A program made the translations under genes and the position numbers. Of a stretch of DNA of 64,000 nucleotides, positions 4,821-64,000 are shown piece by piece; within the stretch, counting starts at the first letter, position 1; each line of letters starts with the position of its first letter. The DNA is taken from positions 23,526-87,525 of the forward strand of contig JAILSC010000019.1 in assembly GCA_024697865.1 (NCBI GenBank), given 5' to 3'. The notes beneath the pieces were generated by a model, which had not been told where the DNA came from, ran no database searches, and saw nothing but the letters and a program-made list of their open reading frames with translations. Source of the stretch: Candidatus Saccharimonadota bacterium (GTDB lineage: Bacteria; Patescibacteriota; Saccharimonadia; Saccharimonadales; Saccharimonadaceae).

Positions 4821-5537
4821 ATGGAAGACCAAATTATTCTCATCGACAAACCCGCAAATATCTCGTCTTTTGGTGTCGTGGCCAAAGTCCGAGGGCATTT
4901 GAAAGCTCAATTTAGACACAAAATCAAAGTTGGCCACACTGGTACTTTGGACCCCTTTGCGACCGGACTTCTAATTCTTCTCACTGGCAAAAACACCAAA
5001 AAATCTTCCGATTTTTTAAAGCTCGATAAAGTCTATGAAGCCACCTTAAAGCTAGGGTTCGTCTCCTCTACCGGTGACCCCGAGGGGGAGATTCAAGAAT
5101 ATTCAGTTTCGGGGCCACGTCCCTCGCGCCCGTCTTCACGGAGCTCAGGCGCTCCCTCTCGGCAGCAGCCTCCGAAATCCCCGAAACTAAACACTCTTGA
5201 ATCCACCTTAGCATCCTTTGTCGGTAAGATAGAACAACGCCCGCCCAAGTTTTCAGCCATCAAAATCGGCGGCCAACGCGCTTATAAACTAGCCCGCCAA
5301 GGCCAAGATTTTGAAATCCCCACCCGCGAAGTCGAGATCTACTCTCTCGAAATTCTAAACTACAATTACCCAGAACTCACTATCCGTTGTCACGTTTCTA
5401 GTGGCACTTACATCCGTACTTTAGCTGAAGACATCGGTAAAAAACTCGGCACTGGTGCCTACCTCACCGCCCTTCGCCGCACTAAAATCGCCGACTACTC
5501 CGTAGACGACGCCCTTAAATTGGCAGACTTCTCTTAA
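4821..5537 (+). CDS. truB: tRNA pseudouridine(55) synthase TruB carrying an in-frame palindromic insert
   Basis: LIDKP, KVGHTGTLDPFATGLL, PPKFSAIKIGGQRAYKLAR, SSGTYIRTLAEDIG. Confidence 0.96.
   Translation: MEDQIILIDKPANISSFGVVAKVRGHLKAQFRHKIKVGHTGTLDPFATGLLILLTGKNTKKSSDFLKLDKVYEATLKLGFVSSTGDPEGEIQEYSVSGPRPSRPSSRSSGAPSRQQPPKSPKLNTLESTLASFVGKIEQRPPKFSAIKIGGQRAYKLARQGQDFEIPTREVEIYSLEILNYNYPELTIRCHVSSGTYIRTLAEDIGKKLGTGAYLTALRRTKIADYSVDDALKLADFS
5090..5203. repeat. In-frame palindromic element (core family 1) in truB
   Basis: 25-bp inverted arms (5090-5114/5179-5203, 3 mismatches) around a 64-bp GC-rich core homologous to the recX and polA cores. Confidence 0.85.
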
Positions 5538-7835: not shown

Positions 7836-8451
7836 TCAACTTCTCGTCATCATATTTGGCTCGCTTTTTGGCAATCATTTTGTCAATTTCTTCTTCGTCA
7901 TTTCGCCCACTTAGCACTTCGTCAATTATCTCCTTGACCACTCCCTTTTTTACTAGCTCCATTCTTAAACGTTTTTGCGAAATCCCTTTTTTTACGAATC
8001 GATTTTCCACATAATATTCCGCGAACTTCCAATCATCCACATAGCCCTTGGTTTTCAATTTTCTAATTATTTCTTCCGAAAAATCAAAGGAGTCTGCTGA
8101 GGATTTTGTGGACCCAACCGGGTCCACAGGAAGTGACTGAGCCCCGTAAAGACGGGCGCGAAGGAACGTATCCGCAGAAGACTTCTTGATTTTTTTGCGA
8201 AACAAATATTCTTTAACTTCTCGCTCGCTCCGCGGCCGCACCAACACCCACTCTAACGTTCTCTGATATAGCTTACCGAATTCCGAGGCTTTCTTGCACT
8301 CTATTAATTTCTCCTCTGTCAGCGTTTGCCCAATTTTTAACTTCAAATCCACTACCTGCGTCACGTCCAGGGAAAAGGCAAACTTGCCACTTACGAACAC
8401 ATTCACTCGATTTGGGTTTTTGACACCCTGTTTTAGGTCTGTAATTTCCAT
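7762..8451 (-). CDS. recX: Regulatory protein RecX carrying an in-frame palindromic insert
   Basis: RPRSEREVKEYL, GYVDD..FAE.YV, S.KRLRMELVKKGV, YL.RQGFSY; immediately downstream of recA. Confidence 0.92.
   Translation of the reverse strand: MEITDLKQGVKNPNRVNVFVSGKFAFSLDVTQVVDLKLKIGQTLTEEKLIECKKASEFGKLYQRTLEWVLVRPRSEREVKEYLFRKKIKKSSADTFLRARLYGAQSLPVDPVGSTKSSADSFDFSEEIIRKLKTKGYVDDWKFAEYYVENRFVKKGISQKRLRMELVKKGVVKEIIDEVLSGRNDEEEIDKMIAKKRAKYDDEKLISYLCRQGFSYQLAQSRVREFEKD
8079..8194. repeat. In-frame palindromic element (core family 1) in recX
   Basis: Imperfect arms 8079-8104/8170-8194 around a 65-bp core (8105-8169) that is 53/65 identical to the polA core. Confidence 0.85.
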
Positions 8452-51270: not shown

Positions 51271-53670
51271 CTATAATTCTCCCCAATTATTACCGGTTGT
51301 AACCTCTACGGCAAGTTTTATTTCTAATTCTGGTGCCACCGACTCCATTTCTTTCTGCAAAATCTGAGCCACCCGTTCAGCCAATTTAGTTTCGCACTCT
51401 ACAATTAAAGAGTCGTGTACTTGCATTACTAATTCCGCTCCAGCAGGCAACACTGCGGCCACTTTAATCATCGCCCGTTTCATTAGATCCGCCTCCGTTC
51501 CCTGAATTGGCATATTTTGTGCCGCTCTCTCCGCTGCTTGGCGAATCACAAAATTAGTCGACTTTACGTCCGGTGTTGGCCGTCTTCGGCCATAGTAAGT
51601 CTCCACGTACCCATTTTCTCGCGCTTGTTTTAAGGTTGCGTCCAAATACTTCTTGATTGGCGCTCTTAGCTCAAAATAATTATCAATAAATTCTTTAGCT
51701 TGCCCAATTGGCATCTTTGCTGCATCCGCTAAGCCTTTTACGCTCATGCCATAAAGTATGCCAAAATTAATCACTTTTGCTGCTCGACGCTGCGCTTTCG
51801 TTACTTTGTTCAGTGATACATCAAACGCTTCCGCCGCAGTCTTAGTGTGAATGTCTATTCCTTTATTGAAATCCTCTATTAATGCTTGGTCACCAGCTAG
51901 TACTGCCGCTAGCCTCAATTCGAACTGCGAATAATCCGCCGAAACCAATACTTTCCCAGCAGGCGCTACAAAGCCCGTCCGAATTCGTTTTCCTTCTTCC
52001 GTCCTCACCGGAATATTTTGCAAATTCGGGTCCTTTGATGACAACCGTCCCGTTGCCGTTACATTCTGCGTAAAGGTCGTATGAATTCGCCCCTTCTCGT
52101 CTGCCAATTCCGGCATCGGCGTGATGTAAGTCGATAATAATTTCGCAGCTTCTCGGTATTCCATTAATTTCGGGATCACTAGATGCAAATCTTTTAGTTT
52201 TTGAAGTTCCTTCGCTCCGGTGGAATATCCCCTAGTAGTTTTTTTGATTCCCTTTACTGGCAACCGAAGATCCACAAATAACACTTCCGATAACTGCACC
52301 GGTGAATTTACGTTAAATTCTTTACCCGCTAAGTCCCATATTTCTCGCTCTAATCGCCCCACCTCTTCCGTATATTCTTTCTTCAAATTCTCAAAATACT
52401 TTCGGTCAATCAACATCCCCTTCTTTTCCATCTTGTAGAGTACCGGTATCAGCGGCAAATCAAACTCCTTATAGACTTGATAAAGTCTCGGCATTTTTTC
52501 AAACTCTGCTTGTTGTCTTGTATAAGCCTCTGTTGTATCTGTCGCCTCAAACAATGTCGCCTGTTCCCGCTTTAGAGGATTCAATAAAAACCCTGCCTGG
52601 CCCACATCCCAAAACTTTTCACCTGCTAAAATCTTCTCCGCCACCTTCTCGTTATGATGCATTAATGATTTTACGTCATAATCGATAATTATAGCTGAGC
52701 TCAATTGCTTCTGATCCGAAAATTTGTGAGCCCTGCTGGGCTCACGAGAAGTGACTGAGCCCTGTGAAGACAGGCGCGAAGGAACGTGTCTCGGAGCAGG
52801 AGCTTCGAGCTCACTAAAATTAAATTTTCTAATTAATGAATTAAACTCTAACTTCTTTAGCCCATTAACTACTTTTTCAGGATCAAATTCAAAATCGGGA
52901 ATCTCGGCTAGCTTCACCGGCGCATCAAACATAATCTGCGCCAACTGACGTGACATATATGCTGATTCTTTTCCCTTAATCAATTTTTTCTGCACCGAGC
53001 CTTTAATTTCATCAATATGCGCATAAATCTCATCCAAATTCCCATATTCGTTCAGTAGTTTTGCTGCCGTCTTTTCTCCCACTCCTGGTACTCCCGGAAT
53101 ATTGTCTGATGCGTCTCCCTTCAAGGCCTTGAGATCTAAAAATTGTGATTTCGAAATCCCATATTTTTCTTCTACTTCTTTTACGTCAATTTGTTCAATG
53201 TTAGAAAACCCTTTCAAGATCCGCCACATGTGAGTGTTATTATCTACGATCTGCAACATATCTAAATCCGACGAAATAATATAGGTCTCCCAACCCCCAG
53301 CCTCATCCGCTTGTCGGCTCAAAGTACCGATAATATCGTCTGCTTCAAATTTTGACACTTCTATAAAGGCCCAACCCAAATCATTAATTAATTCTTCAAG
53401 GAGCGGTATTTGCGCGTAAAAATCATCACCTGGCTTTACTCGGCCCGCCTTATAATCGGCAAAAATCTTTCTCCGACTCTCCGCCGAATCTCGTGAATCC
53501 CACGCTACCACTACTTTAGTTGGCGCCAACCGTTTTACAATCTCCATTGCAATCGCTGCAAAACCATACACACCTCCCGTTGGCGTACCATCAGACAAAC
53601 TCAAAGCCCCCATCGCATAATATCCTCGATAAAATACCGATTTGCCGTCAATCAGTACTAATCGCTTCAT
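51271..53670 (-). CDS. polA: DNA polymerase I (5'-3' exonuclease plus polymerase, shortened middle domain) carrying an in-frame palindromic insert
   Basis: LIDGKS..YR.YYA, EADDIIG, GDASDNIPGV.G.GEKTA, TGRLSS..PNLQNIP, SADYSQFELR, AKVINFG..YG, QVHDSL. Confidence 0.97.
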   Translation of the reverse strand: MKRLVLIDGKSVFYRGYYAMGALSLSDGTPTGGVYGFAAIAMEIVKRLAPTKVVVAWDSRDSAESRRKIFADYKAGRVKPGDDFYAQIPLLEELINDLGWAFIEVSKFEADDIIGTLSRQADEAGGWETYIISSDLDMLQIVDNNTHMWRILKGFSNIEQIDVKEVEEKYGISKSQFLDLKALKGDASDNIPGVPGVGEKTAAKLLNEYGNLDEIYAHIDEIKGSVQKKLIKGKESAYMSRQLAQIMFDAPVKLAEIPDFEFDPEKVVNGLKKLEFNSLIRKFNFSELEAPAPRHVPSRLSSQGSVTSREPSRAHKFSDQKQLSSAIIIDYDVKSLMHHNEKVAEKILAGEKFWDVGQAGFLLNPLKREQATLFEATDTTEAYTRQQAEFEKMPRLYQVYKEFDLPLIPVLYKMEKKGMLIDRKYFENLKKEYTEEVGRLEREIWDLAGKEFNVNSPVQLSEVLFVDLRLPVKGIKKTTRGYSTGAKELQKLKDLHLVIPKLMEYREAAKLLSTYITPMPELADEKGRIHTTFTQNVTATGRLSSKDPNLQNIPVRTEEGKRIRTGFVAPAGKVLVSADYSQFELRLAAVLAGDQALIEDFNKGIDIHTKTAAEAFDVSLNKVTKAQRRAAKVINFGILYGMSVKGLADAAKMPIGQAKEFIDNYFELRAPIKKYLDATLKQARENGYVETYYGRRRPTPDVKSTNFVIRQAAERAAQNMPIQGTEADLMKRAMIKVAAVLPAGAELVMQVHDSLIVECETKLAERVAQILQKEMESVAPELEIKLAVEVTTGNNWGEL
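52696..52813. repeat. In-frame palindromic element (core family 1) in polA
   Basis: Imperfect arms 52696-52721/52789-52813 around a 65-bp core (52723-52787). Confidence 0.85.
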
Positions 53671-62781: not shown

Positions 62782-64000
62782 ATTACTACTGGTAGCAAAT
62801 AAATATGCAGCGCATTGGGAAGCCCCGAGAAGAACAATAGCGAAACCCCATAAGCTATCAACAAACCAATCAATACCACCCTCAAAGGGCTCTGCCAAAA
62901 AGTTCGCACCATCAAAATCAAGGTCAGCACACATAGTGCCGCTCCTACCATGCCAGTTTCTAATAGGATCGAAACGTATTGATTTTGCACAATTTCTTTT
63001 GGTGCTGACGATAATCCATTTACATATAATGCTTGTCCTGCACCGCCCAAGCCTACGCCGAACATTACCGTACTAAAATCTTGGCGCCAAACCCGAAATG
63101 CCGATTCCGACAGTTCCAGTCTCGTATCCGTTGATTCAGCCACATACCCGTCGAACACTGCCTCCGTTGAACCGTCTGTTGCGCCCACATCCCCACTATC
63201 ATTTATTCCAAGGTCAATCACACCCAATGATAAATGATTAATTACCTTGGATATTCCGGTAAAATAAGTATCGTCAGTTCTTGATACCTGTGCCATAATT
63301 CCCTGAATATTCAAAGTAAATAAGAACGACAAAACAATCACTAATCCGATCGACAACCATCGCCATTTTTTAGTTTGAACTATTTGCCAAATCATCATCA
63401 CTAGCGTAGCTACCAGTAATGCATAAATCGCCCCCCGCGAAAACGTCAAAAACAATGTAGCGGTGAAGACGAAGAAAAGGATGGTATAATGCTTCAGCGA
63501 AGCGGCATTTCGAAGCGCGGCAGCGCGAGAGTTAGCGCCGGCCGCCCGTGGCGCTCGCCCCTTGGGACGCGAATTGCCGAAGGCAAACGGGCCGGCCGGA
63601 CGCGGCCGCGAGCGAAGCATTAACCAGCCAACCACTATTGTTGGTGCCAACAATAAATTTCCCATAAACTGCGGCTCAATCGCAAATCCATCCGGATGCG
63701 GAAAGCCAAACATAGAATACGTACATCCAGCACACATCAAGCTATATTCTCGTGGCACTCCCACTAGATCCAATACACATTGAATCCAACACCACGCACA
63801 AATCAGTAGTGAGGACCCAAAAAACGCTTTCCAGAATTTGACCTTCAAGCTCTCTTTTTTAAATAGCTCACGTAAACTTATAATCCCGTCTATCGCCAAA
63901 TATAATAGCCACACAATTCCCACCACCAATATTCCGCGCAAAGCATTCAGTGACCATAATACTGACAAAGAAAGCCAGATCGGCAACAGCAACCACATCC
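62745..64000 (-). CDS. O-antigen ligase (WaaL/Wzy_C)-like membrane protein with an in-frame GC-rich insert; probably 5'-truncated by the window edge
   Basis: Multiple TM helices; EPQF.GN, LTFSRGA, FGVGLGG, NQYVSILLETG.VG. Confidence 0.75.
   Translation of the reverse strand, partial: MWLLLPIWLSLSVLWSLNALRGILVVGIVWLLYLAIDGIISLRELFKKESLKVKFWKAFFGSSLLICAWCWIQCVLDLVGVPREYSLMCAGCTYSMFGFPHPDGFAIEPQFMGNLLLAPTIVVGWLMLRSRPRPAGPFAFGNSRPKGRAPRAAGANSRAAALRNAASLKHYTILFFVFTATLFLTFSRGAIYALLVATLVMMIWQIVQTKKWRWLSIGLVIVLSFLFTLNIQGIMAQVSRTDDTYFTGISKVINHLSLGVIDLGINDSGDVGATDGSTEAVFDGYVAESTDTRLELSESAFRVWRQDFSTVMFGVGLGGAGQALYVNGLSSAPKEIVQNQYVSILLETGMVGAALCVLTLILMVRTFWQSPLRVVLIGLLIAYGVSLLFFSGLPNALHIYLLPVVIYAIGLRKKLVS
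63487..63622. repeat. In-frame GC-rich nested palindrome (links core families 2 and 4)
   Basis: Outer arms TAATGCTTC/GAAGCATTA; contains GCCCCTTGGGACGC (63557-63570), shared with the tRNA-His and tRNA-Asp inserts. Confidence 0.8.

Follow-up and report, generated by a model that had tools for sequence, protein, structure and literature searches.

The hairpin within the truB gene analyzed here is a copy of a GC-rich palindromic family that is specific to Candidatus Nanosyncoccus, and the host codons on both sides of it have been re-coded such that they prolong its stem. The window, i.e. the whole stretch of 64,000 nt that was analyzed, harbors truB coding for the tRNA pseudouridine-55 synthase (238 aa) at 4821-5537 on the plus strand, where the ORF list gives a frame that stays open across the insert. 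Inside this gene, two 25-nt arms (5090-5114 and 5179-5203) separated by 64 nt form an inverted repeat, in which 22 of the 25 positions (88%) are complementary. All three remaining positions, A5099.C5194, A5101.C5192 and C5104.A5189, are A.C mismatches on the coding plus strand and correspond to G.T pairs on the minus strand, while a fourth mismatch of the same polarity, C5130.A5142, is situated in the core hairpin. The arm coordinates, the three mismatches and the arm translations of an earlier note on this DNA could thus be reproduced in the open frame 4821-5537. Among ungapped inverted repeats with at least 22 of 25 matching positions and a spacer of 20-120 nt, the truB repeat is the only one in the 64-kb window, and three shuffled versions contained none. 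Folding as RNA yields -67.4 kcal/mol (z -5.1) for the minus strand and -49.9 kcal/mol (z -4.0) for the plus strand of the hairpin. As read from the codons, synonymous changes (GAA to GAG, AAC to AAT and CTA to CTG) would suffice to restore pairing at each of the three mismatched arm positions, and the mismatches are therefore not forced by the function of TruB.

The repeated unit comprises the central 80 nt only (5107-5186), namely an 8-bp inner stem and a 64-nt core with the shape of a three-way junction. Iterated nhmmer searches identified 17 copies in the host genome of the truB window (709 kb on 26 contigs, 95% complete), which is labelled G000 in the following, with L and G numbers denoting loci and genomes of its relatives. 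From 16 of the 17 copies the covariance model R1 was built, which includes the inner stem and the three-way-junction core. Of the 101 genomes of the genus, 90 contain matches to this model, over 1,100 altogether, and outside the genus a single weak match was obtained among 119 genomes of the order from about 97 other genera. The relatives carry the names Candidatus Nanosyncoccus or Candidatus Saccharibacteria and are mostly ruminant-gut MAGs. The truB copy matches the model over its full length (5105-5189 on the plus strand, 77.2 bits, E 4.9e-20), and the RNAalifold consensus of the core displays compensatory changes in 12 of 16 modelled pairs. Three sister copies are found on the minus strand of the same window, all of them in frame: one inside recX (8093-8180; cmsearch 79.3 bits; 232-aa ORF) and one inside polA (52711-52798; 77.9 bits; 800-aa ORF), each with its own arms, and a composite copy in an O-antigen-ligase-like gene (63495-63615; 49.6 bits; 499-aa ORF), whose 121 nt span 87 model positions and bear an extra module at the tip. 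Searches of Rfam 15 with E up to 1 gave no match on either strand for the truB copy or 11 other copies, and we found no description of the element in Saccharibacteria in the literature. The copies of G000 in leuS, a uvrD-like gene and trmD (C5:8120-8206, C26:7126-7212 and C2:5033-5119; loci L036, L038 and L039) share an identical 73-nt stretch and differ at one base over the 81-nt unit, while the genes that host them show a divergence of 13-20% from the nearest relative. These identical (type-B) cores may have arisen either by recent spread or by gene conversion between copies.

Read along the plus strand, the truB copy starts with the left outer arm (5090-5106), which consists of the truB codons (E)IQEYS; its sequence is copy-specific and not common to other copies of the repeat, and GEIQEY also occurs in the core-less orthologs L004, L190 and L192. 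It is followed by the left inner stem TTTCGGGG (5107-5114), which is conserved between copies and lies inside the covariance-model match 5105-5189, and by the conserved 64-nt core (5115-5178) known from the nhmmer family of 17 copies, in which the RNAalifold consensus places the hairpins P2 (5123-5148, tip 5128-5144) and P3 (5161-5170). The right inner stem CCCCGAAA (5179-5186), again conserved between copies, encodes P-K, and the copy-specific right outer arm (5187-5203) with the truB codons LNTLES carries C5194, C5192 and A5189. The core is predicted to be translated as a disordered loop of TruB: the AlphaFold model shows a mean pLDDT of 86 with values below 50 solely for residues 98-114, and in this model the left outer arm falls on strand 91-93, while the right outer arm coincides with the beginning of helix 123-131. 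The earlier note had regarded both arms as TruB-like sequence. This holds for the outer 17 nt, which occupy positions that exist in insert-free orthologs, the left one as the GEIQEY strand and the right one as the helix start; the inner 8 bp (TTTCGGGG/CCCCGAAA, translated as S-G and P-K) belong to the element instead.

The position inside a coding sequence is the rule for this family. In G000, 15 of 17 copies sit in frame in housekeeping genes, whose long ORFs are not interrupted by the element; 11 of these genic copies have the core in sense and 4 in antisense orientation. Likewise, 95 of 109 copies from 18 genomes are located within ORFs that remain uninterrupted. Several reading frames are used in each orientation of the core. 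Judging from their first residues, we take the affected genes to be argS, lepA, uvrB, recX, leuS, polA, trmD, priA, mnmA, truB and der as well as genes for a UvrD-like helicase and a FemAB-like protein, among others. Such insertions are probably tolerated because they would be translated in frame as disordered surface loops.

Outside the unit, the arms differ from copy to copy, with unrelated sequences of 17-60 nt that form an imperfect inverted repeat around the common core. Orthologs of truB were obtained from 39 of 41 relatives. Between TGDxEG and FxGxxxQ, the loop measures 43 aa in this gene as opposed to 21 aa in naive orthologs; the net gain of 22 aa (66 nt) is below the size of the 80-nt unit, and the outer arms therefore sit on native positions with a few native loop codons displaced. 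Both GEIQEY on the left and [ILV]-E-S-x-L-x-S-F on the right are present in core-less orthologs, one of which comes from another family of the order, and in insert-free orthologs with [ILV]-E-S before x-L-x-S-F (L080, L228 and L029) the DNA is non-complementary to the left flank. The inverted-repeat score at this site is 8-20 in insert-free orthologs versus 38 here. The outer 17 nt of each truB arm are truB codons re-coded to pair, and each arm can be divided into an outer third that is native at the protein level, a middle third of remodelled loop residues, and an inner third formed by the element. Neither arm is a simple inverted copy that replaced native sequence in a single event, the outer thirds of both arms being native as protein and paired by codon choice; likewise, the comparison with insert-free truB proposed for finding the ancestral arm identified the outer third of both as native, whereas the inverted repeat is absent from the insert-free DNA, so that the arms do not occur there unchanged.

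In principle, a palindrome could have existed in truB beforehand, with both arms native and the element landing in the middle of a hairpin. The outer arms indeed look native as protein (GEIQEY and [ILV]-E-S), the E-I-Q codons can pair with the L-E-S codons over about 8 nt, and several palindromic cores of unrelated sequence use the truB site as a hot spot. Nevertheless, we give this explanation hardly any credence, because insert-free orthologs are at background, the exceptions L190, L237 and L010 being remnants with core pieces, and because the empty sites of leuS, trmD, uvrD and mnmA in the nearest relatives are also without inverted repeat, their scores corresponding to the within-gene background. 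A pre-existing palindrome as target of insertion was hence rejected for all five genes.

Alternatively, the stem might be made in one step, if the element inserts together with an inverted copy of its flank (an inverted target-site duplication) and later decay introduces the mismatches. Such an event would be in line with the ortholog L005, which keeps the native GEISPYSVES in addition to a separate left arm, and with net gains of 26 aa in L003 and of about 31 aa in uvrD compared to G135. Against it, the gap corresponds to the 27-codon (81-nt) unit alone in three of the leuS/trmD/uvrD comparisons (18-37 aa across all 11), the gain at truB is smaller than the unit with arms on native positions, and arms of up to 60 nt cross conserved motifs by using synonymous sites, for example the HYIIL motif in trmD, which is better explained by patchwise conversion. 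Direct target-site duplications were not visible at the leuS, trmD, uvrD, mnmA and truB junctions, whose flanks are rewritten. Overall, an origin of the stem in one step seems unlikely, while an inverted target duplication remains a rival for those copies with a net gain above the unit.

The comparison of truB orthologs also revealed how the arms change together. Nine orthologs share the identical 43-aa spacing, but the core is in sense orientation in two and in antisense orientation in seven of them, and both orientations at identical spacing are expected from spacer inversion. The arms of these nine orthologs differ and yet match within each genome, i.e. IQEY is found with TLES, IQPF with TVES and ILPY with MVKS. 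In the alignment of the ortholog arms (A3), 84% of the cells are paired and 15 of 25 pairs are changed on both sides; none of 500 shuffles scored as high, and slid controls reached 30-54%. Hence, the idea that the arms co-adapted is supported, as the insert-free orthologs are devoid of the inverted repeat and the insert-bearing ones covary in both arms. Core-less orthologs with an inverted repeat (L190, L237 and L010) are remnants: L010, the truB of G010, lacks a core, its 31-nt arms enclosing a loop of 6 nt; L190 retains the arms plus the last 12 nt from the 3' end of the core, and L237 has kept RRDPERN. In the remnant L192, the right inner stem has been kept and is translated as PKLD. The single-gene TruB tree based on 200 columns is poorly resolved (50 of 104 forks open) with intermixed core states that need 46 changes, and we therefore do not claim any order of gains, losses and flips.

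In other species of the genus, at least four further, unrelated types of palindromic cores occupy the identical codon position of truB (L015, L218, L234; L070, L195, L200; L220, L223, L226; L009, L012, L023), each of them closed by arms that consist of the GEI(T/Q)E flank and its complement. The truB loop is thus a genus-wide hot spot for palindromic cores.

The wobble polarity is real and tied to the element, and it depends neither on the mRNA nor on the direction of replication. For the tally, 109 copies from 18 genomes were oriented by their core, and the left flank was aligned to the reverse complement of the right one with equal penalties for both transition types. On the C-rich plus strand of the core, which is the coding strand at truB, 149 A.C stand against 58 G.T mismatches, although the significance of this difference is overstated because copies from related genomes are not fully independent. 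The polarity is not the one-in-eight accident that the earlier note had conceded for its three mismatches, as it holds over the 109 copies, and the genome-wide tally it had proposed did find a strand bias. Counted per copy, 67 have more A.C and 12 have more G.T; at the level of genomes, A.C prevails in 15 of 18, the other three being a tie, a reversed case and a genome without mismatches, and G000 alone shows 29:12. The ratio of A.C to G.T is 77:30 for copies in sense, 56:22 for copies in antisense orientation to the host gene and 16:6 for intergenic copies. The polarity is the same whatever the direction of the host gene, and it therefore follows the element and not the mRNA; the suggested link to the coding strand had to be dropped, since the bias is unchanged when the core is antisense to its host or intergenic. 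Transcription was rejected as cause on these grounds, and so was a replication-linked mutation bias, because the sign is the same in flanks of opposite GC skew (113:50 and 36:8).

The bias is confined to the vicinity of the core, with 45:6 and 63:12 in the 20 nearest columns, and is gone further out. Unpaired extra bases are also distributed unequally, 98 in the right versus 43 in the left arm with a peak 7-10 columns from the core, and in 102 of 109 copies it is the minus strand that forms the better fold. The helices of the core itself show no polarity (19 A.C versus 17 G.T) and are 94% Watson-Crick. At the truB site, no polarity relative to the core was found among 37 antisense-core orthologs (27:35), which are related and hence not independent, while 7 sense-core orthologs gave an A.C:G.T ratio of 12:4; this difference would fit cores that flip inside older arms. 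The C-rich strand of the core lies on the G-rich strand of the flanks (+-4 kb) in 82 of 109 copies, including 27 of the 43 copies that are antisense to their host gene, and the orientation of the element therefore seems to be biased relative to replication.

Collectively, we consider it fairly probable that the truB hairpin represents a coding palindromic insert, whose re-coded private stem was built by template switching and whose G-rich strand folds as ssDNA. In this scenario, the GC-rich hairpin of the element itself would nucleate template switching during replication (quasi-palindrome correction), by which one arm is copied from the other without a change in length, so that pairing could be created, extended and repaired. 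The same process could flip the core, and selection on TruB, the host protein, would decide which arm conversions survive. In vivo, the folding strand would be the G-rich minus strand of the element, probably exposed as ssDNA at the replication fork. Template switching as cause of the private stem is what we infer from arms on native positions without a change in length, matched multi-codon changes and the inversion of the core at constant spacing, all of which fit this process. Correspondingly, the gap equals the unit alone in three comparisons, 15 of 25 pairs show double-sided changes, and both core orientations occur. Template switching has been reported to homogenise and extend inverted-repeat arms, to invert spacers and to cause multi-codon changes in yeast genes (PMC8604942), as well as to create and maintain stems (PMC8794818). 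No such event was caught between near-identical strains, and selection for pairing that acts on ordinary point mutations would give the same covariation. Furthermore, G.T-specific repair on a plus-strand hairpin could also give the polarity, which would reverse the conclusion on the folding strand.

With regard to the folding molecule, ssDNA or antisense RNA had been suggested. The first is favored and the second is less likely, as the polarity follows the element; the G-rich strand is most simply seen as ssDNA because the orientation of the host gene is irrelevant to the polarity. One-sided G.U pairs are, of course, a classic mark of a transcribed RNA strand, and the minus strand of the truB hairpin folds 17 kcal/mol better than the plus strand, which could be expected if a functional RNA was made from the antisense strand of truB. 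However, the polarity does not differ between the 52 copies whose G-rich strand is antisense and the 43 copies whose G-rich strand is sense to the mRNA, and intergenic copies show it, too; Rfam gave no match on either strand, and the helices of the core lack an excess of G.U. Moreover, the sole promoter-like site that could drive antisense transcription is weak (a 9 of 12 match about 400 nt downstream), and a single such site is no more than chance would give (1 found, shuffle mean 1.0). An antisense RNA from the truB hairpin is thus unlikely. If the hairpin were instead a signal within the transcript of truB, for instance an RNase III site or a spliced-out segment, the host frame would not need to stay open, but every genic copy keeps it so. 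Taken together, we regard an origin of the structure as functional RNA of either kind as very improbable.

It might also be possible that the long stem is selected, because the folded G-rich ssDNA serves as substrate for an enzyme that copies or moves the core. The G.T wobbles and the one-sided bulges would then be features for recognition or tolerance. The ends of IS200/IS605, the target hairpins of Ssn, the bottom strands of attC and REP-RAYT can be used as models for comparison. Several observations point in this direction, namely the strand polarity that is tied to the element, the one-sided surplus of unpaired bases with its peak close to the core, the preferred position of the core plus strand on the G-rich flank strand (82/109), and the tetranucleotide CGTC, which immediately precedes hairpin P2 in 10 of the 16 aligned copies, truB among them, with CGTT, CGCT, GGTC or CACT in its place in the remaining six. 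This tag recalls the CGTC-tagged REPs/SRMs (PMC11893778), where CGTC lies just 5' of a 20-50-nt hairpin. On the other hand, a partner enzyme did not emerge. Y1 (HUH) transposases (PF01797) gave no match in the 95%-complete G000 while controls matched, and a TnpB domain was absent as well. With the exception of three marginal short frames (70, 77 and 136 aa), the 101 genomes of the genus yielded no small single-domain GIY-YIG nuclease of the Ssn type (about 94 aa), nearly all GIY-YIG frames having 287-602 aa. The single GIY-YIG match of G000 (C2:37554-37772) belongs to a 419-aa frame; in most genomes of the genus the sole GIY-YIG domain resides in a frame of about 420 aa, which is shorter than a typical UvrC of 600 aa. 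In addition, daughter copies do not inherit the arms, and any selection on them would be indirect. We therefore view the enzyme substrate as a possible but doubtful reason for the long stem, which is compatible with template switching as the maker of the arms. It can be proposed only tentatively, and with little confidence, that host codons are recruited to lengthen the stem in a strand-specific manner, with G.T wobbles and bulges on one strand of the element whatever the direction of gene or replication, and that the folded G-rich ssDNA is the working form of a copying or cutting system that is neither of the HUH/RAYT nor of the Ssn type. If true, the private stems would belong to a new mobility mechanism instead of being generated passively during replication.

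In its behavior, the element of Nanosyncoccus corresponds to the Rickettsia palindromic elements (RPE-1 to RPE-10; Ogata et al. 2000/2002, reviewed in PMC10969869), which likewise are short palindromes inserted in frame into unrelated housekeeping genes of a small genome and add peptide segments that the fold of the protein can accommodate. In-frame, read-through insertion into coding genes was also found here, as judged from the open ORFs and the loop in the AlphaFold model. The likeness refers to the way in which both work and not to sequence membership. The Nanosyncoccus element occurs in a different phylum, has a unit of 80-81 nt and uses both orientations and several frames, and it differs from RPEs by a private, host-coded stem with strand-specific wobble bias, a feature which is not described for RPEs in the review PMC10969869.

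Quasi-palindrome template switching according to the Ripley model (PMC8604942, PMC8794818, PMC7202029) resembles the situation at truB with regard to the homogenisation and extension of arms without length change, multi-codon replacements, double changes that look compensatory, and spacer inversion; however, it is a mutational process and not an element. In published cases from coding genes, the arms measure about 5-16 bp and the spacers 2-5 bp (PMC8604942), whereas the Nanosyncoccus case would be nucleated by a mobile GC-rich hairpin, extend over 17-60 nt and affect essential genes in the whole genus. Many-copy, strand-specific DNA hairpins are also known as REP/REPIN-RAYT and as CGTC-tagged REPs or Ssn motifs, which are cut by the GIY-YIG ssDNA nuclease Ssn, and a CGTC tag reminiscent of theirs adjoins a GC-rich hairpin in most Nanosyncoccus core copies. 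But those elements lie outside genes, their stems are conserved from copy to copy, and the genome contains a partner gene for them (PMC3733652; PMC11893778), while the Nanosyncoccus copies are intragenic and have private stems as well as neither a Y1 transposase nor a small Ssn-type gene. Unlike MITEs, which have terminal inverted repeats conserved between copies, the element has only the inner 7-8 bp in common, and the outer 17-60 nt are private.

The attC sites of integrons are likewise imperfect inverted repeats that work as one folded DNA strand with one-sided wobbles and extrahelical bases. In attC, however, it is the ends that are conserved and the centre that varies, and the sites are positioned at cassette ends beside an integrase, whereas the Nanosyncoccus element has a conserved centre, private ends and copies inside genes.

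These findings imply that essential genes across a genus of ultra-small, host-dependent bacteria carry selfish DNA that is apparently translated, and that the element rewrites neighboring host codons, whereby TruB, TrmD, UvrD and other proteins are altered at several residues simultaneously. Should template switching be responsible, the insertion sites would provide a natural and highly replicated record of a mutational process acting on proteins, and compensatory double changes in a stem would not need to mean a functional RNA. Moreover, the strand-specific wobble bias offers a testable handle on the question of which DNA strand folds in vivo. For genome annotation it is relevant that the inserts inflate the protein length and may be misread as introns, frameshifts or new domains. 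Some otherwise intact matches contain in-frame stops, four TAG in L112 (G061) and two TAA in L115 (G135) for trmD, which are probably upstream of the true start, as well as one TAA in L075 (the truB of G132) and one TAG in G139:C2:230054-230704 for truB, which may be errors or broken genes. Finally, a second insert of about 37 aa, absent from G000 and G135, is located near residue 238 (G000 numbering) in leuS of G091, G162, G061 and G012 (L108-L111).
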